DNA from: a virus
Lineage: Duplodnaviria; Caudoviricetes
DNA length: 64,000 nucleotides
IMG/VR virus record: IMGVR_UViG_3300033555_000001
Coordinates: 160,001 to 224,000 of that record
Direction: 5' to 3' (one strand)
This document shows, one piece after another, positions 13,472-31,685 of the stretch (within the stretch, counting starts at the first letter, position 1; the number at the start of each line of letters is the position of its first letter). A model generated the notes under the pieces. That model was not told the DNA's origin. It made no database searches and was given only the letters and a program-made list of their open reading frames with translations. Made by a program: the position numbers and the translations under genes.

Positions 13472-15136
13472 TTAAAGCTCTAATTTAAATTTTAAATTAC
13501 CACTGTCTTCACAGCGTAACCAACCATCAGCTCTCATATTCTCTAATTCTGTTTTACTGGCATCAAAATTCTTTACTATTCCAGGCAGCGCGGATTTCAT
13601 AGCTTGATATCGCAACAATCTAACTGGCCCTTTAACGTAAAAATAGTTAGGCCGTGTTGTCTTAATCAGTTTAAACCCTGCTCTGAGGTACGCATCACCC
13701 ACTGAAATTCTGCGATCTGCATAGGTGATTAAAGTCCGGTACGACTTTTTTCTGAGCTCTGCTAGAATTCGCTGAAATCCTCCGGTGACCGAAACTCCTG
13801 CACTGGCAAATCTAATTAGCTCTAATTCTTCTTTACCAAACCTAGCATGTCCAAAGCTAGCCGCTTGAACAAGTTTGTCATTATCAAACAGCCCAATAGT
13901 AAAACTTGCCTGCGCACTTCCTTGCAAGTGCCACTGCTTAAAAAATTCAGGACAGCCGCCCTTAAGCACTTTTACTTTTAGTTTTCTAGCCATTAGTCTA
14001 GGCAGCAATCCTAACTTAGCAAGTATAATGTTGTGCACCACAAGAGGCTTTTCATCTATTTCAAAATCCCAGAAGTGCAGTAACTGAATACCCGCAGCTT
14101 CAGCTAATTCAGTTTTCTTAATTAACGGTTGGGATACAGATTGGTCGTGATGCCAGTACACTCCATTTACTTCTATTGCTAATTGCTTAGCCGGAATATA
14201 AATGTCTAGTTCTAACGGTGAAATAACATTTCTGTCTTCTACCAAATACGAGAGATCTGTGTTAGATACCATTGCTTCAACGACTGTCTGAACTCCGCTC
14301 TTTCTTCTACAATACGGACAGAGAATACCTCTGTGTAGTCTGCCAGCTGCTTCAAATTGTTTGCCGCACTCTAGATGCTGCCACATGTATTTGGTTTCGT
14401 AACCGGACCAATCAGCTTTTGTGAACACTGGTATAACACTGCAGTCAGTTTTAATCTTCTGCATCTGCTCGTCAAAAGACCCGTCTAGAAAGCGCAATTT
14501 TGCTCGGTTGCTTAATTGTTTTTTCACTTCAGCAGTTTTAGTATAGTGAACCTCACCGTACTTAAGTAAAGTAGTTGATTCTGTTTTTATTCTAGTTTCT
14601 TGTTTTTCTGTTACCGATCGCCGTGCATGAGTAGCTGAAATTTGTTTCTTAATAACATCCGAATTGGCTGGATTTTCAGTACCGTATCTGAGCATATTTG
14701 TCGTAGCAGCTTTTTCTCGAACTTTAGGTGCGGACCATGATGCTTCATATCCGTACACTGCTAAACTTGTTTCTCTAATTTTAGCCCTGACAAGTTCAGA
14801 ACCCGCAGCATGTTCGGTTCCATACTTACTAAGATTGGTTTCTGATCGTTTTGATTTTGTGCTCTTTGAGACTGCGGCGCACTTAGGACTGCAGAATTTT
14901 TGAAGTTTGCCGTTAGCGTTTAAATTTAACGACTGACCACAGGAACAGTTTGGCCTGATTGAAATATCATTCTTCAATGCGTACATTTTTTCGGCAAGAG
15001 TAATCCACCCACCCAGATCCGCAGACATTAAATCAGCTTTAAAGATTTTTCCATTTGCGGAATTTAGCAGGCCAGTCATGAACTTACCGTCACGGTAAGC
15101 AAGATCCTGAAAGCGAGCTAGGAATAATTCAAACAT
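13472..15136 (-). CDS. Hef-like homing endonuclease (Zn ribbon, repeats, PD-(D/E)XK core, GNAT-like C-domain)
   Basis: ELDIYIPAKQLAIEVNGVYWH core; KYG-type repeats; ELIRFAS and ITYADRR in the C-domain. Free-standing gene downstream of the major capsid gene. Confidence 0.75.
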   Translation of the reverse strand: MFELFLARFQDLAYRDGKFMTGLLNSANGKIFKADLMSADLGGWITLAEKMYALKNDISIRPNCSCGQSLNLNANGKLQKFCSPKCAAVSKSTKSKRSETNLSKYGTEHAAGSELVRAKIRETSLAVYGYEASWSAPKVREKAATTNMLRYGTENPANSDVIKKQISATHARRSVTEKQETRIKTESTTLLKYGEVHYTKTAEVKKQLSNRAKLRFLDGSFDEQMQKIKTDCSVIPVFTKADWSGYETKYMWQHLECGKQFEAAGRLHRGILCPYCRRKSGVQTVVEAMVSNTDLSYLVEDRNVISPLELDIYIPAKQLAIEVNGVYWHHDQSVSQPLIKKTELAEAAGIQLLHFWDFEIDEKPLVVHNIILAKLGLLPRLMARKLKVKVLKGGCPEFFKQWHLQGSAQASFTIGLFDNDKLVQAASFGHARFGKEELELIRFASAGVSVTGGFQRILAELRKKSYRTLITYADRRISVGDAYLRAGFKLIKTTRPNYFYVKGPVRLLRYQAMKSALPGIVKNFDASKTELENMRADGWLRCEDSGNLKFKLEL

Positions 15137-23847: not shown

Positions 23848-24636
23848 ATGTCTGACACTCAAAACCCGCTGCTGGCCAAGATTAAATTGCCAGGCCGCAC
23901 ATTCCAGCTCCCATCCCGTGGTGCAATGTACAACAATGGTGAATTAGCAGCAGATTCGCCAACCGGCGAAATTCAAGTATATCCGCTAAGCGCTCTTGCT
24001 GAAATAAATTTAAAGAACCCTGATTTGCTGTTTAACGGCCAGGCATTGGTTGCTGTGCTGAATGAGTGCGTTCCAGCAATTAAAAAGCCGCTAGACATGT
24101 TTGGGCGAGATGTTGACGCGCTGCTGTTCTTCTTGCGACTAGCAACGTACGGCCAAGAGTATCGGATTGAAGTAAAGCACGATTGCGCAGAGGCTAAACA
24201 ACACGCCTATGCGGTTAATTTAGAAGAAGTAATCCAGCGCATGGTATTTCTTGACCCAACAGTTATTGCCAGTAAACAGACGGTGGTGCTGTCAAATGGC
24301 CAGACCGTTTATACTCGCCCAATGAAGTTCAGCGATATTATTGCGCTCTTTCATAAGAGCGGCAGCAAAAAAGAACTTACCCCAGATGACATCAAAGAAC
24401 TTGCTGTTACTAATCTTATGTCAATGATCGAGCGAGTTGAGGATATTACTAACGCAGCTATGATTGAAGAGTGGGTGCGCACGCTTACGACTCCAATGTT
24501 TAATCGAATTACTGAGGCTGCAAACGAGCTCAACAGTTGGGGTCCTGAGCAAGTGGTAGAAATCAAGTGCAAAGACTGCCACGGAACAATGCGCGTAGAG
24601 CTGCCGCTGAATCCTGTATCTTTTTTCACCGAATGA
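23848..24636 (+). CDS. Baseplate/tail assembly chaperone (gp26-like)
   Basis: FQLPSRG, IQVYPLSALAEINL, CKDCHG and LNPVSFF motifs. Confidence 0.8.
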   Translation: MSDTQNPLLAKIKLPGRTFQLPSRGAMYNNGELAADSPTGEIQVYPLSALAEINLKNPDLLFNGQALVAVLNECVPAIKKPLDMFGRDVDALLFFLRLATYGQEYRIEVKHDCAEAKQHAYAVNLEEVIQRMVFLDPTVIASKQTVVLSNGQTVYTRPMKFSDIIALFHKSGSKKELTPDDIKELAVTNLMSMIERVEDITNAAMIEEWVRTLTTPMFNRITEAANELNSWGPEQVVEIKCKDCHGTMRVELPLNPVSFFTE

Positions 24637-24863
24637 TTTTGGATGGCGATCGCACCAAAATCATAAACATGATCGATAGAATGTCCCTGGATGTCAAGGC
24701 GCTTATTCAGTGCGCACTTGATATTGCAACACATACTAGAGGCGGCGTGCCGTACGAGACCGCACTTAACATGTCAGCTTTTGAGCGTGATCTGGCAATT
24801 GAGGGAATTAATAAGAGATTAGAGGCTGCGTCTAAGTCTCCATTTGGTGGCATGATGATGTAA
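24633..24863 (+). CDS. Hub assembly catalyst gp51-like / second tail chaperone ORF
   Basis: ATG overlaps the gp26 stop (ATGA); YETALNMSAFERDLAIE resembles the gp51 motif. Confidence 0.65.
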   Translation: MILDGDRTKIINMIDRMSLDVKALIQCALDIATHTRGGVPYETALNMSAFERDLAIEGINKRLEAASKSPFGGMMM

Positions 24864-24864
24864 T

Positions 24865-24892
24865 AAAAGGGGATCTTATAAGATCCCCTTTT
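24865..24892. terminator. Bidirectional intrinsic terminator
   Basis: Perfect 28-nt palindrome AAAAGGGGATCTTATAAGATCCCCTTTT between convergent genes. Confidence 0.85.
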
Positions 24893-24924: not shown

Positions 24925-26175
24925 CTACGCCGTAAGACGAAGGTTTAATTTCTTCATGATTTCTGGCAGCCGATCCAAATACTGCTGAGGCACGCCATCT
25001 AGCCCATCATGCACCATAATTCCATGCTGATCAACAGCTTCCCAGAGCGCATATCTGGCGCGGCGTTCCCACGCAAAGTACCCACTGAATACCGATTTTA
25101 TATTTTGCCTGTTAGGCGCACGCTTGAGCAGTCCAAGACAGGCGTATTTTCTGGCAGCCGAGAACTGCGCAGCAATTCGCTGCAGGCGAGCACCAATTAA
25201 CATTAACTCAGACGTAGTAGCGTGTGGCGCAGCTTTGAGAATAATATCAGCGGTGAGTGAAAAGCCCGATCCGTTGGTTAGTAGTGTTGGGGAAATCTTT
25301 GAACCATTAGCCAGGCTCATGAGCACTTGCTTGATGGTACCGCGGTATTGATCAGTATACGGGTGCTGCAAAATCTGTAAACACAGCTCTTCCCTAAACG
25401 ATTCTTTATCTTCAAGCAGCCGCAACAAATCTGGAAACATCAGCCGCAGCGCGTTAGATCGATCGTGAAATGCTACTTCCAAGTGCTCCATTAAAAACTG
25501 CACATACGCAGAGTCAAGATCAATTCCCTGACCAAAGAGCATTTCTCTGAGCCAACCAGGCCAGGTTTCAACCGCGGCGATTGGCCACACTGAAGTATCT
25601 CGTAGCTGCAATTTACCACTGCGTGCAAAATAAAAGTTTATTTCTGGTGGCTGCCGTAATAACCAAATAAGCTGTGGGATAATTTCTGGCCGGCCGGTTG
25701 ATAACAGCCGGTTAATTATTACTGACTGATTGAGATTGGGCTGCAGATAGACTTTTGAAATAGCCGCATTTTCCGGCCTGACTCCTGGCTCGTAGTGCAG
25801 CTCAGTGGTTACGGCGTTAACCAGTTCTAAATCTGTGCGACTCAGTGTGCGAGGCACAAGAGTGCTCAGCTCCATGTTCTCTTCGCCAAGATTAAACCCA
25901 AGCTGCTTTATGGTGAAAAAGTAATCAAGGGCCGGTCGGTAATCGCGTACTTGATCCCTGAGATCCATTAGCCGCACTTGTACTTCACAGAAGCCCCGCG
26001 GCTTGCCGGATTTAATTGCTCCACGATACAAGTTCGCAAGCCATAAGATTAAGTCCTGGCGAGCCTCAATTTTTCCACGATGCAGTCGCTGCAGATCAGG
26101 CCAAAACTGCGTCCAGTGCAGGGGGTGATTGTGTGGCAAAGCGCCGGTGATGTTTAGCTTGTATGGACGTGTCAT
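24925..26175 (-). CDS. Minimal family-A/T7-RNAP-superfamily polymerase-like protein, 416 aa
   Basis: Motif A-like IDLDSAYVQF (D219), motif B-like RGTIKQVLMSLANG, motif C-like MVHDG (D390). Confidence 0.55.
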   Translation of the reverse strand: MTRPYKLNITGALPHNHPLHWTQFWPDLQRLHRGKIEARQDLILWLANLYRGAIKSGKPRGFCEVQVRLMDLRDQVRDYRPALDYFFTIKQLGFNLGEENMELSTLVPRTLSRTDLELVNAVTTELHYEPGVRPENAAISKVYLQPNLNQSVIINRLLSTGRPEIIPQLIWLLRQPPEINFYFARSGKLQLRDTSVWPIAAVETWPGWLREMLFGQGIDLDSAYVQFLMEHLEVAFHDRSNALRLMFPDLLRLLEDKESFREELCLQILQHPYTDQYRGTIKQVLMSLANGSKISPTLLTNGSGFSLTADIILKAAPHATTSELMLIGARLQRIAAQFSAARKYACLGLLKRAPNRQNIKSVFSGYFAWERRARYALWEAVDQHGIMVHDGLDGVPQQYLDRLPEIMKKLNLRLTA

Positions 26176-26203
26176 GCTGTAATTGTATCATCTTCTAGAT
26201 GCT

Positions 26204-26229
26204 AAAAAGGGCATACAGTGTATGCCCCT
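26204..26229 (-). terminator. Intrinsic terminator
   Basis: GGGCATAC-AGT-GTATGCCC stem; the A5 tract gives a U tail on the minus strand. Confidence 0.7.
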
Positions 26230-26251
26230 CTGGTTATTCAAACTGCAGAAA

Positions 26252-26479
26252 TTAGGGGAAAGCGCCTAACCAATACCCAATGCCGTGAATAACTCCAATT
26301 GGAAACAGCAAGGCTCCGGCAATTAACAGGATCCAAAAACCTGCTTTAATTGAAACCACAATGTGCGTCAGCCATGCCGCAAAAATGATAACTGGAAGAG
26401 CAACAAATAGTAGCACCGTTGCCACCGCACCTTTCTTGCTAAAGAATGAGTTAAAGCTAGAGCTAATCCTGTTAAACAT
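26252..26479 (-). CDS. Small membrane protein
   Basis: Two to three TM segments; ATG 26479 overlaps the stop of the upstream ORF. Confidence 0.6.
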   Translation of the reverse strand: MFNRISSSFNSFFSKKGAVATVLLFVALPVIIFAAWLTHIVVSIKAGFWILLIAGALLFPIGVIHGIGYWLGAFP

Positions 26480-26681
26480 TAGCTGCCGGCGGTGCAGTAC
26501 CCTGCCGCACGCTCTTTTTAAGAGCCAAATATGCGCCACGAAAAGTATTACTGTTTACGGTGACCGTGCCACGCTTGTCCCGTGTGTACGCCACGGCTTT
26601 GACGTCGACGCCCTGTGCAATTGCAGCTTTTTCTAGATTACGGGTAACTTTGCGCAGGCTTTTTGCTGTTTTAGCGTTCAT
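26472..26681 (-). CDS. Small basic hypothetical protein
   Basis: GAGGAG Shine-Dalgarno; Lys/Arg rich. Confidence 0.6.
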   Translation of the reverse strand: MNAKTAKSLRKVTRNLEKAAIAQGVDVKAVAYTRDKRGTVTVNSNTFRGAYLALKKSVRQGTAPPAANV

Positions 26682-26740: not shown

Positions 26741-27139
26741 TTAGGTTGATGCTTTTGCTGCCTTGGCTTTAACTCTGGCGCGCTTTGTTTTAAGCTTTCG
26801 ACGTTCTGCTTTTTCTTCAGGGGTGAAGTGCGTAGGGTGAATCAGTGCAGTTTGATTTGCGGCGTGCGTGCTAAGATAATTACCGGCCCCGTGCAAAAAG
26901 GCGATTAGCTGTGCGGGTTTCATGCCATATCGCGGCGCGCCATTTTCCACTTTTCCGAGCAAACTATTACAACTGCGGTGCAGCACGGCTCGAACGTGTC
27001 CGCCTTTATGGCAGTGATCTAGCACCGCCTCTTCTGGAGTGCAAACTAAGTTGCAAATAGCACAAAACCCGCCTTGCTGTTCGTGCATCAGCGTGCGGGT
27101 TTTCTTTACACCGGTAGTCTTAAGTTTTGTAGGAGTCAT
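26741..27139 (-). CDS. Recombination endonuclease VII-like (gp49-like)
   Basis: CAIC...LDHCHKGGHVRAVLHRSCNSLLG motif. Confidence 0.85.
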   Translation of the reverse strand: MTPTKLKTTGVKKTRTLMHEQQGGFCAICNLVCTPEEAVLDHCHKGGHVRAVLHRSCNSLLGKVENGAPRYGMKPAQLIAFLHGAGNYLSTHAANQTALIHPTHFTPEEKAERRKLKTKRARVKAKAAKAST

Positions 27140-27142
27140 CCC

Positions 27143-27415
27143 CTATTTAACTGGGCTCTGCTCACCCCAAATTTCCATTTCTTCTGGTTCACCCGTAACG
27201 ATTAATGTTTTACCGCTTGCTTTTATAATACCATATTCACCATCGTCCCAAATTTCTTGAGGATCGGGAATGATTGTAACTTTACGTGTAATATAGCAAA
27301 ATCCATCTCGGGCTGTTGGAAATTTATTTGAAAAGTACCGCTCATTGTCTCGCTGAGTAATATAAATTTTAGCAGAGGCAGTGCGCGGTTTTTCTAAGAT
27401 TTCTGATAATTTCAC
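27143..27415 (-). CDS. Hypothetical putative head-internal protein
   Basis: Leader MKLSEILE. Confidence 0.5.
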   Translation of the reverse strand: MKLSEILEKPRTASAKIYITQRDNERYFSNKFPTARDGFCYITRKVTIIPDPQEIWDDGEYGIIKASGKTLIVTGEPEEMEIWGEQSPVK

Positions 27416-27876
27416 GGCGACTTCTTCAATGAAGACTCAAAGGTAGAGGCTTCTTCAATTTCAAAGTTAAACGAATTATCAGTTACTCGCTTGACGACGT
27501 AATCACCATCATTTAGCTGCGCGGTCATACTGTTTTCAAGTTGAACTTCAATTGTATCTCCGGAGTACTTAAACGCTGAAATTTTAAGTGGATCCATGTA
27601 GACGGTAAAACCCTCGGCATCAGCCGTTTGATTAGGGCGAATTGGAGCCAGTGTTTTAGAGAGTTCAACCGCGCTAAACGTGCCAAACGGTTTTGATGTT
27701 GTACCAACCACGCTCAAGACCTCGTACGTTACTGGCTTTGTATCCAGTGGGCGAACCATGTAAGTAAGGGTTGATACGTACTTTGAAACTTCGGATTCGT
27801 TATTTGACCACAGGTCTTCTACGGCAACTTTTTCAATTGCCGCTTCAAAGATAGGTTTTAGATCTGATAATTTCAT
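27412..27876 (-). CDS. Hypothetical putative head-internal protein
   Basis: Leader MKLSDLKPIFE; late promoter TAAATA upstream. Confidence 0.55.
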   Translation of the reverse strand: MKLSDLKPIFEAAIEKVAVEDLWSNNESEVSKYVSTLTYMVRPLDTKPVTYEVLSVVGTTSKPFGTFSAVELSKTLAPIRPNQTADAEGFTVYMDPLKISAFKYSGDTIEVQLENSMTAQLNDGDYVVKRVTDNSFNFEIEEASTFESSLKKSP

Positions 27877-28297: not shown

Positions 28298-30037
28298 TTA
28301 GCCCTCTATGATCGTACTAAACCCGTGATGCTTTTGTATTGTCATTGACCGATCTAATCGACCTTGGATATTTTGATGATGACTGATAACATAGATACCA
28401 AGATCCTCGTCACGGCTCTTTTCTTTTAGAATCCTGACAATTGCGTCAATTCCCGCGCTGTCAAGTGCGCCATCCAGCTCGTCAATCAGGAGCAGATTAC
28501 ATTTGGCGTGCAAGTGGTGCAACACGTCTCTGAACGCCAGGGCCATGCCGGTATTGACGCGCTTCTTTTCGCCGGCTGACAAGTTACCAAAGTCAAGGTC
28601 TCGCCCAAACTCAGACACAGTACAGCTCAGGTCAGCGTCAAATTTCACAATGTGCGGCAGCCCAAGCTTAGCCGTGTAGTTGTTGATTCGACTGTTCAAG
28701 AACGGAATGGTTCGGCTAATAATTCGCCGGCGCAGAAATGAATCTTTAGAGGTAAGCAGCTTTAGCAGAAACGCCTGATGTTCTAATCGTTTTTTCAGAG
28801 CATCAACTTTTTCAGGTTCTGCTGCTTGTGCAGTTTCAGCGCTTAACTGCTTAAACGCTTCAGTGTGCGGATTAACTGCGGTGGCTAAATCACCAAGCTT
28901 TACGGTCATGACTGATGAATTTTCACGGGCGGCCAAGAGCTCTTTCAAGTTACTGTGCTTGATAGCGCCTTCAACTTCAGCGAGCCGCTGTGCATGGGAC
29001 TGCACCTGTAGAGCCAGGTCGCCTACCACTTCCTCAACCTCCAGCAGTCTGGCGCCTTTAGCTTCAATGGCCGCATCCAGTTCTGTGAGCTTTTTTGGAG
29101 CATCAGCAAATTGCTGCAAACAGTACGGGCAATTTGCTTTAGCCAAGTGCGTCTGCTCGCTGAGTAGCCTTTCTACTTCAGCGGTGAGTAACTGCCGATC
29201 TTTTTTGGCTGGGGCCAGCTTAGAGTTTAGTTGTGCACCCTCTTGCGCCAGAGCAGTGCGCTCGTCATGCAGTAACTGCTCAAGCTCAAAGTCAACTGTG
29301 CCAAGCACCGCCAGGGTTTTTTCAATACTGGCTATTTCTTGCTGGCGCGTAACTTCCCAGCGATCTACTCTACTTGAGGCATCTGTAATCTGCTTTTGAT
29401 GCAGTTCTGCTGCTGTTAATTGCTGCTTGAGTACCGCCTCTTGTACTTTTAAATCGCTCTCTGTTTCGCGAATCAGCTCTTTGAGCACTTTTGCTTTTTC
29501 AGACAGGAGTGTAATGTTAAACAGTTCTTCAATTTGATTGCGCTGCGCTGCGGTTGGCAGCTGCAAAAACGCCACTGAGTTACCGGAGAAAATAATAGTC
29601 TTGGTAAAGAGATCATAAGAAATTCCAATGATCTCCTCGATCATTTTATCGCACTCAATTACGCTTTTACCTGGTGTAATGTCATCGCCGTTCTTCCACA
29701 GGTTAATTGTAAAGTGCTCACCACGTGTTCGTAAAATTTCATACTCATCACCGCCCCGCTCAAATGACAGGCGTACTTCCATGAGTGTGTTCTTTGATGC
29801 GTTTGTGCTGTTAATCAACCGCTGTAGACTGATATTGTCAAACGGCTTGTTGTACAGCGCGTAACACAGCGCGTTAATGATTGTAGTTTTGCCAGCGCCA
29901 TTTGAGCCGCCAACGTCTAGATTTTGGCCATCAATAGTTACAGTGCCAGGCTCGGCCAGATTTATTACGGTATCATTTTGGCCGAACGATAGAAAGTTTC
30001 TGAGCGTCAAGTCCCTGAAATACAGTGTACTGCTCAT
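28298..30037 (-). CDS. Recombination nuclease ATPase subunit (gp46/SbcC-like)
   Basis: Walker A GSNGAGKTT, signature LSAGEKKR, Walker B LLLIDE, central CPYC zinc hook. Confidence 0.95.
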   Translation of the reverse strand: MSSTLYFRDLTLRNFLSFGQNDTVINLAEPGTVTIDGQNLDVGGSNGAGKTTIINALCYALYNKPFDNISLQRLINSTNASKNTLMEVRLSFERGGDEYEILRTRGEHFTINLWKNGDDITPGKSVIECDKMIEEIIGISYDLFTKTIIFSGNSVAFLQLPTAAQRNQIEELFNITLLSEKAKVLKELIRETESDLKVQEAVLKQQLTAAELHQKQITDASSRVDRWEVTRQQEIASIEKTLAVLGTVDFELEQLLHDERTALAQEGAQLNSKLAPAKKDRQLLTAEVERLLSEQTHLAKANCPYCLQQFADAPKKLTELDAAIEAKGARLLEVEEVVGDLALQVQSHAQRLAEVEGAIKHSNLKELLAARENSSVMTVKLGDLATAVNPHTEAFKQLSAETAQAAEPEKVDALKKRLEHQAFLLKLLTSKDSFLRRRIISRTIPFLNSRINNYTAKLGLPHIVKFDADLSCTVSEFGRDLDFGNLSAGEKKRVNTGMALAFRDVLHHLHAKCNLLLIDELDGALDSAGIDAIVRILKEKSRDEDLGIYVISHHQNIQGRLDRSMTIQKHHGFSTIIEG

Positions 30038-30369
30038 TTTGAAAGCTTTACTGGCAAGTCGTTAATGCTGATGATCTTAATCGTAAAATCACCCTCTTCT
30101 TCTGCCTTCTTTGAAAAGCTAGAAAAAATACCAGACATGATACCAGACATACGTTCGGAGTCCTTGTGGCATATGTATACGGAGCCGCTGGCTTGAGGCA
30201 TGGTGTACTGCTCACCGTCAAACACAACGCTTTCAATTCCTGAGCTCAGTTTCCATGAATCACCATTAGCAAAGCCGCCATACCAGCTAGCAAGCACTTT
30301 ATTAATTGTGCCATGTTCGGCAGAATCTAACTCTACAATTACCCATGCATCCGGATGATAGTCGCTCAT
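30034..30369 (-). CDS. Conserved hypothetical phage protein
   Basis: YHPDAWVIV...KVLASWYGGFANGDSWKLSSGI is a motif I recognise from T4-like phages. Confidence 0.65.
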   Translation of the reverse strand: MSDYHPDAWVIVELDSAEHGTINKVLASWYGGFANGDSWKLSSGIESVVFDGEQYTMPQASGSVYICHKDSERMSGIMSGIFSSFSKKAEEEGDFTIKIISINDLPVKLSK

Positions 30370-31415
30370 TCTGTTCTTAATTCCTCATAAATTTGAACCA
30401 ACATCTCTGGATCAATTGTTGCTGTTGGCGACACACCCTCGTGAATTAACTGTCGCACGGTACCGTCCAGCGATGACAGGTCTAGTTCACCCTCCAGTTC
30501 TAACCCGGAGTTGAGAGCATCTTTCTTAGATTGTAAGTCCTCTTCGACAGAAAATTCTCTTAAATTAAAGGTTGACATCATTTCTTCTCGCAGGGCCTGC
30601 ACATCGCTGTAGCCAACATCTACGTCAAGTACACATCTGACTCGCCCGCCGGATTTAAAGCTCATTTCGCCTGTGAGTACCTGAGAAAGCTTAGTCTGAT
30701 AAAACAGTGGAGCGTCCTCATAATCAAAGAACTCTACACTCTCAGTTCCAGGAATAAAGAGACAGGCACCGCGTTCAGTATCCCAAGAGTCGCCAAAGGT
30801 GGTTGGAAAAGTGTTGCCAATATAAATGATGTTCTTGTTTACTTGGCGCAGGTGAAAGTGCCCGCTGAAAATATACTTAGGCCCAGTAAATTGATCTGCG
30901 TCCGGGCCGTGTTCTAGTCTGCGGTCGGTACCAGACACAACAAAATTTCGGAACTCAAAGTGCCCAAGCACGTACTTGTAAGAGTTAATCTGTTCGGCGA
31001 GCTGCGGGTATTCTTCTTTGAAGATAAAGGGTGTTGCAAATAAATCAGGCGCCAGTTCCATTGGCTCATTAACAATAACGAAGTTCTTCAGATCTCTGAA
31101 TTGGTCAGTGCTAAACACTTCGCGATTGGAGCGGTGATACAGGTCATGGTTGCCCACCAAGAAGAAAACTGGTAAGCCCAGGGCGTCTAATCTGCGGGCA
31201 CCCTCTTGAGATGCTTTTAATGTTCGCACATTAATTGCATTTCGGGATTCGAACCAATCACCCAGGAACGCGATATGTGTGGCTTTTTGTTCGATGGCTC
31301 GGGCACAAAACCAGTCTATGTAGTTTAGACAGTCTTGCAGATGTTGGTCGCTGTTCGACCGTGCGCCCCAATGAATGTCGGTGCACATCATCATTCTCAT
31401 ATTGGAGGTTATCAT
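30366..31415 (-). CDS. Recombination nuclease subunit (gp47/SbcD-like metallophosphoesterase)
   Basis: TDIHWG, LGDWF, VGNHD, GHFE and SGHFH motifs. Confidence 0.95.
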   Translation of the reverse strand: MITSNMRMMMCTDIHWGARSNSDQHLQDCLNYIDWFCARAIEQKATHIAFLGDWFESRNAINVRTLKASQEGARRLDALGLPVFFLVGNHDLYHRSNREVFSTDQFRDLKNFVIVNEPMELAPDLFATPFIFKEEYPQLAEQINSYKYVLGHFEFRNFVVSGTDRRLEHGPDADQFTGPKYIFSGHFHLRQVNKNIIYIGNTFPTTFGDSWDTERGACLFIPGTESVEFFDYEDAPLFYQTKLSQVLTGEMSFKSGGRVRCVLDVDVGYSDVQALREEMMSTFNLREFSVEEDLQSKKDALNSGLELEGELDLSSLDGTVRQLIHEGVSPTATIDPEMLVQIYEELRTE

Positions 31416-31685
31416 GCCGCCGCTCCTTGGAGACAACCGCTAATAACTACTCTAAGTCCTGCAAAGTTTACTACCAAAAATTGCTGCGTTGGGTATAAAG
31501 TGTAAGCCGTCATTGGATCCTTATTGGGAGAATGTGACGGCGACTCAGAAATTATATCCAGCTGGTCAGACAGTGCCACCTGGAAACGGGCTCGGGTTGT
31601 GTTGATCCCGACCGGCCCAGAATACTATTTTAAGAGACTAATCTATAATGATGTACCGTGTAACATAATATAACTGGAGTCTGCC

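Follow-up and report, generated by a model that had tools for sequence, protein, structure and literature searches.

A predicted minimal family-A-type polymerase encoded with the recombination genes of uncultivated T4-like jumbo phages

A stretch of 64,000 nucleotides (nt) from the genome of an uncultivated phage (positions 160,001 to 224,000 of IMG/VR record IMGVR_UViG_3300033555_000001; hereafter the window) contains an open reading frame (ORF) of 416 amino acids (aa), here called POL, for which no annotated relative was found. This raises the question what kind of enzyme POL is and what it may do in a phage that encodes a T4-type replicase. A preliminary description of the window, made from the letters alone, had read POL as a minimal right-hand polymerase of the superfamily that unites PolA and T7 RNA polymerase (RNAP), with emphasis on the latter, and had proposed an accessory role as primase, RNAP or repair polymerase. 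The explanation that we favor, with a probability of about one half, is that POL is an active minimal family-A polymerase that acts as an accessory of a recombination module, probably by filling gaps or extending 3' ends with deoxyribonucleoside triphosphates (dNTPs). The coordinates of the gene, its motifs and its neighbors are collected in Table 1.

The predicted structure agrees with the assignment to the PolA/T7 RNAP superfamily. The AlphaFold2 model of POL, built from an alignment of 87 sequences, had a predicted local distance difference test score (pLDDT) of 94.4 and a predicted template modeling score (pTM) of 0.87. In an exhaustive VIA comparison of this model with 48,161 PDB representatives, the 11 top matches were all PolA DNA polymerases (DNAPs) or single-subunit RNAPs. 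Pol theta reached a Z of 10.3, with 246 aa aligned at a root-mean-square deviation of 4.7 over model residues 138-416, and further DNAPs were a Taq variant (10.2), Klenow (9.5), Pol nu (8.9), T7 DNAP (8.2) and Pol gamma (8.0). The single-subunit RNAPs gave lower values, namely 8.7 for the yeast mitochondrial enzyme, 7.8 for T7 RNAP and 5.6 for N4 RNAPII (6dt7_B), and the N4 mini-vRNAP aligned weakly over residues 8-416 (Z 5.7). Re-scoring of Foldseek candidates yielded 104 chains with Z of at least 8, and the best 50 of these 104 were all family-A DNAPs, with Pol theta at the top (Z 11.2) and Taq, Bst, T7 DNAP and Klenow at Z 9-10. In Foldseek searches of the PDB the E-value was only about 7e-3, but every match was a PolA. 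The best matches in BFVD and AFDB were uncharacterized phage or bacterial proteins (E 4.8e-10 and 4.6e-6, template modeling score about 0.5), followed by TV-Pol-like polymerases of virophages and others fused to SF3 helicases. Searches of the ESM Atlas by shape and by features returned nothing useful, and the Atlas's own model of POL was poor.

In the AlphaFold2 model, residues from about 131 to 416 align to the palm and fingers of family-A DNAPs such as Pol I (Klenow, Taq, Bst), T7 DNAP, Pol theta and Pol nu, over about 245 residues with Z between 9 and 11. D219 lies in the strand 218-220, which is followed by a helix (223-235), K282 in the helix 275-289, H389-D390 at the turn of the hairpin 386-393 and R192 in the hairpin 178-197. 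The segment that carries D219 and H389-D390 superposes on PolA palms. As judged from the model, motifs A, B and C and the hairpin with the template-contacting Arg thus occupy their canonical places in the secondary structure, and the predicted fold is nearer to family-A DNAPs than to the RNAPs of T7, mitochondria and N4, so that the superfamily proposed at first is supported by the structural matches, whereas the emphasis on T7 RNAP held for the O-helix discussed below and not for the fold or the hairpin motif.

The resemblance is restricted to a core of about 280 aa, compared with about 400 or more in family-A DNAPs. Neither a 3'-5' exonuclease domain nor a vestige of one was detected, as had been noticed before: residues 1-130 matched nothing in the PDB convincingly (best Z 4.1). 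This lineage-specific N-terminal domain is predicted to consist of a long helix followed by a strand-helix-helix-strand-strand arrangement that is winged-helix-like. Folded alone it was modeled confidently and gave no clear PDB match, with scattered winged-helix proteins among the weak ones (Z <= 4.1). The modeled thumb amounts to at most two short helices (150-159 and 163-173) ahead of the hairpin, and because it is so small, the model suggests that the enzyme would be distributive. If active, POL would rank among the smallest family-A-type polymerases known (about 415 aa with the core of about 280 aa), would be informative on how far a functional core of the Pol I/T7 RNAP superfamily can be reduced and would offer a compact polymerase scaffold for enzymology.

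Five collinear elements of PolA type can be read in POL: the hairpin, motif A, motif B, a W-E-R-x-A-R motif and motif C, in which H-D-G is followed by D393 (H-D-G-x-D393). ARSGKLQLRD precedes GIDLDSAYVQF (D219), RGTIKQVLMSLANGS (K282) and MVHDGLDG (D390), and the three catalytic codons were located at 25521-25519 (D219), 25332-25330 (K282) and 25008-25006 (D390). The three motifs that had been named at first are therefore all present in the order given and behind RSGKLQ, and the span of 171 aa from motif A to motif C was also correct. Enzymes of the Pol I type have about 175-180 aa between these motifs. Further features shared with family-A DNAPs are the motif A Asp at the end of a strand, the His-Asp of motif C at a beta-turn, an O-helix Lys with a Gly nine residues on, the G-[KR]-L-x-x-x-D hairpin and the E-R-x-A signature. 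The hairpin would be the counterpart of TGRLSSxDPNLQNIP in PolA; hhalign placed it on GRLSS.DPN, collinear but not significant, and placed the W369-R374 motif on 'aeR.AinAP' of PolA, likewise without significance. In general, the hhalign alignments were collinear at the motifs though not significant.

Conservation was assessed in 213 distinct homologues with 23-69% identity to the window protein. D219, K282, G291, R192, R210, R261, G187 and P198 were identical in all of them, and H389-D390, W369, E370 and R374 in all 212 sequences that cover these positions. Nearly as constant were D/E393 (about 100%), N290 (99%), M286 (98.6%), Q226 (98%), D/E221 (97%) and D193 (96%), followed by K/R188 (89%). 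Position 278, on the other hand, is variable (I in 110, R in 50 and K in 19 sequences), so that R278, which had been listed as a motif B residue, is Arg in only 23% of the family. Compared with the PolA consensus RxxxKxxxFxxxYG, K282 and G291 are kept, F is replaced by M286 and Y by N290; in terms of Klenow, F762 has become Met, Y766 Asn, the equivalent of R754 is variable and the Glu gate has given way to Tyr or Phe. Such losses might mean that POL is catalytically dead and persists as a DNA-binding or scaffolding factor with a polymerase fold. The absence of the canonical Tyr and Arg from motif B and the failure of every sequence profile to recognize POL would fit this explanation, but the 213 sequences are uniform at the two Asp that would bind metal, at the O-helix Lys, at the hairpin Arg and at ERxA, a pattern typical of an active site that is being kept, and we regard a dead enzyme as very improbable. 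Judged by the model and the conserved motifs, POL is very probably an active polymerase of the PolA superfamily.

Whether such an enzyme would incorporate dNTPs or ribonucleoside triphosphates (rNTPs) is a question for two parts of the active site, and these point in different directions. The residue five positions after the motif A Asp is the one that we take to be the steric-gate position (E710 in Klenow, G542 in T7 RNAP). POL has Tyr (199 sequences) or Phe (11) at this position, 224, in 98.6% of the 213 homologues, so that, with the register taken from the sequence, the Glu gate of PolA is not found here. An aromatic steric gate marks the dNTP-selective polymerases of families B and Y and the reverse transcriptases. 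Y/F224 is therefore moderate evidence that POL would use dNTPs, and the higher structural scores of PolA DNAPs compared with RNAPs point the same way. The O-helix, in contrast, reads like that of an RNAP: K..LMSLANGS in POL compares with K..VMTLAYGS in T7 RNAP and K..IMTALYGS in N4 gp16, and the shared pattern K-x-x-[VIL]-M-[ST]-L-A-x-G-S is accompanied by two further RNAP-like features, the His-Asp of motif C and a Gln seven positions after the motif A Asp (D537...Q544 in T7 RNAP). hhalign aligned motif B of POL to K631...Y639-G640 of T7 RNAP, with M286 on M635. The T7-RNAP-like motif B of the preliminary description is thus borne out as a reading and by this alignment, which was not statistically significant. 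Two residues that permit the T7-like enzymes to use rNTPs are nevertheless absent from POL, Y639 being represented by N290 and G542 by Y/F224. POL also lacks the T/DxxGR motif of single-subunit RNAPs and has no match to the Pfam RNA_pol family (PF00940), and neither a promoter-binding N-terminal domain nor a specificity loop could be recognized in it. Because the O-helix is RNAP-like and its Tyr is replaced by Asn, sugar selectivity cannot be read from the sequence with confidence. The combination of Asn for the otherwise universal O-helix Tyr, Met for Phe and an aromatic gate as in family-B, family-Y and reverse transcriptase enzymes makes the putative active site of POL an unusual one.

POL is invisible to the common profile collections. 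Pfam gave no match at E <= 10 for POL or any of 87 homologues, the PHROGs gave none for the POL protein, phmmer and profile searches of the PDB with POL were empty, and the DNA_pol_A profile (PF00476) matched nothing anywhere in the phage genome. Homologues are nevertheless conserved across a whole clade of uncultivated jumbo phages. A total of 261 was found among 5.8 billion proteins, nearly all of 405-420 aa, unnamed or 'hypothetical' without exception and in many cases on contigs of 200-375 kilobases (kb). Since HMMER, run exhaustively over 1.84 billion cluster representatives, gave only 41 POL clusters, the family is small and closed, and a second protein search that used the alignment found no further distant or annotated relatives. 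IMG/VR contains 72 POL loci. Among 50,697 records of cultured phages, tblastn with the window protein or with two members from the lower end of the identity range found no homologue, and the POL profile had no match in RsoM2USA, XacN1, Xoo-sp13, RAS14 or Ma-LMM01. The family is thus restricted to uncultivated T4-like jumbo phages.

The closest precedent for such a reduced enzyme are the TV-Pols, which were described as the minimal core of the PolA/T7 superfamily (Iyer, Abhiman & Aravind 2008; PMC2579912). Like these, POL is a stand-alone core without nucleases that has the invariant hairpin Arg (R192), the two catalytic Asp (D219 and D390) and the fingers Lys, and that accompanies the resident replicase instead of replacing it. 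Unlike in TV-Pols, the Arg of RxxxK is not conserved (Ile in 110 and Arg in 50 of 213 sequences), and the N-terminal domain is different. At the place of the bihelical coiled-coil thumb of TV-Pols, the model of POL has two short helices ahead of the hairpin. No profile link was found either, since the POL profile had no match at E <= 1 in Ma-LMM01, a reported carrier of a TV-Pol, while the control search of the phage's own genome was positive. TV-Pols are linked to D5/SF3 helicases, integrases, resolvases or transposases, whereas POL lies in the core genome beside Mre11/Rad50 and a junction nuclease. Going by the descriptions of the groups, not by their sequences, POL also matches no named cluster and none of the smaller groups of the 2023 PolA reclassification (PMC10201439). 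Because its RxxxK Arg, linkage, profile link and N-terminal domain set it apart from TV-Pol and no named PolA group fits by its description, we class POL as a new family within the known PolA/T7 superfamily.

The likeness to TV-Pol raises the possibility that a selfish mobile element resides in the phage genome and that POL is its TV-Pol-type replicase. The minimal PolA core with hairpin Arg, two Asp and fingers Lys is what defines TV-Pol, and TV-Pol-helicase fusions of virophages are among the BFVD and AFDB matches. POL is, however, found at a fixed place between gp46 and the hub/portal block in about 70 contigs, down to 23% identity, no D5/SF3 helicase, integrase, resolvase or repeats were found near it, the profile is silent in Ma-LMM01, and in 185,579 species genomes POL was present on only 3 short contigs of metagenome-assembled genomes. 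The constancy of its place over this divergence argues for vertical inheritance and not for a mobile element, which we consider very improbable. In its own genome POL is present as a single copy (profile search, E 3.7e-189).

The surroundings of POL were read in seven contexts of individual homologues and, by script, in 71 IMG/VR loci, of which 41 are non-redundant. They have one gene order, gp47, gp46, in part the 154-aa ORF, a nuclease, a small basic protein and POL, and on the opposite strand after POL follow the baseplate hub and then gp29 and portal. Upstream of POL, gp46 was present in 49 and gp47 in 45 of the 50 loci with 5 kb of flank. The nuclease is either PDDEXK_15 (PF24608; phrog_244, 'RusA-like Holliday junction resolvase', E 9e-14), which occupies the slot in 30 of the 41 non-redundant loci, or endonuclease VII, which does so in 8; both together were never seen, and 3 loci have neither. 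In the homologue of lowest identity (22%), the stop of the PDDEXK gene overlaps the start of POL. The window phage belongs to the endonuclease VII group, and no PF24608 match was found in its own genome. Two nucleases that use the same slot and never occur together look like a non-orthologous displacement in situ, which predicts junction resolution as the function of PF24608. The locus of gp47/gp46, nuclease and POL is thus a module of recombination and branch processing.

The rest of the genome indicates which tasks are already provided for. The phage that encodes POL is of jumbo size, at 310 kb or more, and comes from an ice metagenome. Its sequence was present in one public run only, a DNA run of an ice metagenome that is probably the source sample, and its nearest relatives by major capsid protein are RsoM2USA and XacN1. 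The window contains genes for a T4-type portal, the major head protein, a gp29-like protein of 972 aa, a gp26-like hub, endonuclease VII, gp46 and gp47, and outside the window there are gp43 of family B, gp41, gp44, UvsX, gp55, beta-gt and gp42, in agreement with the T4-like phage and the family-B replicase that had been expected. A DnaG-type primase is encoded directly upstream of gp41 (Toprim_2, E 3.8e-4; phrog_47, E 9.5e-28), and POL as the sole primase was rejected for this reason. A 196-aa ORF outside the window aligns with the N-terminal region of Pol III alpha (PF07733, E 1.9e-7; C1:239175-239417), and the same piece was found in RsoM2USA, XacN1, Xoo-sp13 and RAS14; it is the mini Pol III alpha in split form that was described for jumbo phages of group 2.2. 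In these T4-like phages a split minimal Pol III alpha occurs beside the family-B replicase and was proposed to serve repair or second-strand synthesis (Iyer et al. 2021, PMC7824862). POL resembles it as a stripped-down accessory polymerase next to a family-B replicase of T4-like jumbo phages, whereas the fold is unrelated, since mini Pol III alpha is a Pol beta-like nucleotidyltransferase. A complementary distribution of the two enzymes was considered and rejected, because both are present in this phage, and they are not alternatives to each other. With the mini Pol III alpha piece, the phage carries three kinds of polymerase-like enzyme. As gp43, the DnaG-type primase, gp41 and mini Pol III alpha are all present elsewhere in the genome, POL is accessory and neither the replicase nor the only primase. 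Of the accessory primase, RNAP or repair role proposed at first, the accessory part has therefore held, and the role can be narrowed to the recombination module of gp47/gp46 and resolvase.

For a polymerase at this place, the following sequence of events appears most likely. gp46/gp47 would resect DNA ends, and UvsX would pair the resected ends. POL may then extend 3' ends or fill gaps on D-loops or annealed ends with dNTPs, in a distributive manner, possibly with the small basic protein helping it to engage DNA, and would hand over to the gp43 replisome or substitute for it. In this way POL would add a component to T4-type recombination-dependent replication.

Several points weigh against this explanation. 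The comparison of POL with a profile of 32 Pol I sequences by hhalign was not significant (P = 0.37), and the assignment to PolA is based on predicted structure and motifs without a link between sequence profiles. The alignment of T7-like RNAPs, with P = 0.019, did not reach significance either, and the same was true of T7 RNAP alone and of N4 gp16. The O-helix, as read from the sequence, is RNAP-like, with an invariant Asn where Klenow has Y766 and T7 RNAP Y639, and the steric gate was assigned by register, not by superposition in three dimensions. The gene neighborhood is circumstantial evidence for a role in recombination, and cultured relatives manage without POL.

The main rival is that POL initiates chains de novo, as a primase or as an RNAP of short transcripts, using rNTPs or dNTPs and perhaps requiring the small basic protein to do so. 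It could prime on resected strands or D-loops, or make R-loops for origin firing. The O-helix resembles that of single-subunit RNAPs, N290 could conceivably form a hydrogen bond with the 2'-OH, and the RNAPs of T7, mitochondria and N4 are among the structural matches. There are precedents in the TV-Pol family, whose members were predicted to be primase-polymerases (PMC2579912) and to which CCPol of SCCmec belongs; CCPol-MP was shown to be a primase-polymerase of the A family (PMC7581432). The position of the DnaG-type primase beside gp41, the Tyr or Phe in place of the Gly of T7-like RNAPs at the steric gate, a hairpin motif of PolA type (G[KR]LxxxD) instead of T/DxxGR, the lack of any Pfam RNA_pol signal and the higher structural scores of PolA DNAPs all speak against it, and we consider a primase or RNAP function of POL possible but doubtful.

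The small basic gene is the part of the module that could bring POL closer to CCPol and its partner MP. Its product carries the motif MNxKxAKxLRK...RGxYxxLKK and has 61-69 aa in the five copies that were aligned and 85 aa in RsoM2USA, and the gene lies upstream of POL in 34 of 41 non-redundant loci. In 14 of these 34 its stop is at most 30 nt from the start of POL, often with an overlap of 4 nt, and such frequent translational coupling of a conserved gene would suit a primase-polymerase with a subunit. The predicted complex of POL and the small protein scored 0.39, compared with 0.01 for the best control. The mark used for such scores is passed by 58 of the 80 solved complexes and by 2 of the 110 mismatched pairs, and scores up to 0.60 comprise only 7 of those 80 solved complexes together with both passing mismatches, so that the prediction lends weak support to a POL-small protein complex. 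In the predicted interface the small protein contacts the fingers of POL at residues 231-246 and 329-354. MP is a beta-barrel and unrelated, whereas the neighbor of POL is basic and probably helical, and RsoM2USA keeps both PDDEXK_15 and the small basic protein without POL, which argues against a dedicated partnership. That the two proteins form a two-component PolA primase-polymerase that starts or restarts synthesis at Mre11/Rad50-resected ends and thereby initiates recombination-dependent replication, or a Pol theta-like end-joining enzyme, is in our view rather unlikely. If true, the enzyme would need no DnaG-gp41 primosome, would join CCPol-MP as a second, unrelated example of a family-A polymerase that has become a primase, and would be the smallest member of the superfamily known.

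A dedicated transcriptase like N4 RNAP II, which would read a subset of genes from promoters of its own, was also considered. POL is in the size class of N4 RNAPII gp16 (404 aa), which is among its structural matches (Z 5.6), and shares the RNAP-like O-helix. The phage, however, has the T4-type late sigma factor gp55 and otherwise a T4-like scheme that relies on the host RNAP, POL is absent from close cultured relatives with the same gene programme, and neither a specificity loop nor an AT-rich loop could be identified in POL. Its synteny with recombination genes instead of transcription genes and the Tyr or Phe at the steric gate do not favor a transcriptase either, and we judge it to be very unlikely.

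Table 1. Positions of POL, its sequence motifs, flanking signals and neighboring genes in the window.
Feature	Positions	Strand	Basis and remarks
POL (minimal family-A-type polymerase, predicted), coding sequence	24925..26175	-	ORF list, ATG start, 416 aa
N-terminal domain, aa 1-130, fold unassigned	25786..26175	-	domain model pLDDT 87; P18, L19, Q40, F86, F87, G93 conserved
Beta-hairpin motif G187-[KR]-L-x-x-R192-D193-T-S-V-W-P198	25582..25617	-	conservation and model strands 178-186, 192-197
Motif A G-I-D219-L-D221-S-A-Y224-V-Q226-F-L	25492..25527	-	strand 218-220, helix 223-235
Motif B/O-helix (R278)-x-x-x-K282-x-x-x-M286-S-L-A-N290-G291-S292	25300..25344	-	helix 275-289
W369-E370-R371-x-A373-R374 motif, before motif C	25054..25071	-	conservation; counterpart of PolA ERxAxN
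Motif C I-M-V-H389-D390-G-L-D393-G394, beta-turn-beta	24994..25020	-	strands 386-388, 391-393
Terminator hairpin, bidirectional, separating POL from the gp26-like/98-aa genes convergent to it	24865..24892	.	-17.9 kcal/mol, z -5.4
TGATACAAT, candidate extended -10-like element, ends 6 nt before the POL ATG	26182..26190	-	read from sequence
Terminator-like hairpin and UUUUU directly upstream of POL	26205..26231	-	RNA fold -16 kcal/mol, z -3.5
Small two-helix membrane protein (phrog_7319)	26252..26539	-	ORF list; between small basic gene and POL
69-aa basic protein (MNAKxAKxLRK...RGxYxxLKK), possible accessory subunit	26472..26681	-	alignment of copies
Endonuclease VII (T4 gp49-like)	26741..27139	-	phrog_423 E 5e-36; slot of PDDEXK_15 in most relatives
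154-aa conserved module ORF	27412..27876	-	between gp46 and nuclease in about 35 loci; no Pfam or PHROG match
gp46 (Rad50/SbcC-like)	28298..30037	-	phrog_77 E 1.6e-96; T4 gp46 E 9.5e-35
gp47 (Mre11/SbcD-like)	30366..31436	-	phrog_100 E 1.8e-55; T4 gp47 E 1.5e-18

In RsoM2USA, which keeps gp47, gp46, PDDEXK_15 (RsoM2USA_372) and the small basic protein (RsoM2USA_374), the slot of POL is a non-coding region of 1.4 kb (MG752970.1 251624-253024) without any ORF longer than 77 aa. This region contains no tRNA, has no Rfam match and shows no similarity to other phage records. A decayed POL pseudogene in it was considered and rejected, as no trace was found even with filters off. XacN1 has none of PDDEXK_15, the small protein, POL and the hub gene at the equivalent locus. 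Its gp46 homologue is an ORF of 1,100 aa (AP018399.1 182467-185766) that matches the window gp46 in three separate pieces, which suggests that other sequence has been inserted, perhaps an intein or a further domain.

The arrangement in the window differs from the usual one immediately upstream of POL. The gene of the phrog_7319 membrane protein was not recovered as a conserved neighbor and lies outside the conserved module, and in this phage it and the terminator behind it have been inserted between POL and the small basic gene that is otherwise its upstream neighbor. Its ATG overlaps the stop of the small basic gene (...AATGTTTAA...), so that these two genes are translationally coupled. POL is flanked on both sides by strong hairpins with U-tracts. 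An early promoter of its own, as claimed in the preliminary description, was not borne out: the consensus scan called no sigma-70-type promoter upstream of POL, no -35 element was found, the only candidate is TGATACAAT behind the terminator hairpin, and in most relatives POL comes immediately after the small gene and often overlaps it, the two lying within 30 nt of each other in 14 of 34 loci. No Shine-Dalgarno sequence precedes the POL ATG, and the POL mRNA would be leaderless if TGATACAAT were a promoter (26175-26190, minus strand).

Elsewhere in the window, a homing or HNH endonuclease of 554 aa (phrog_3339, E 1.3e-98) is encoded on the minus strand at 13472-15136, adjoining the major head protein gene, and on the plus strand at 24567-24863 the 98-aa ORF uses a different frame from the gp26-like hub gene, whose end it overlaps.

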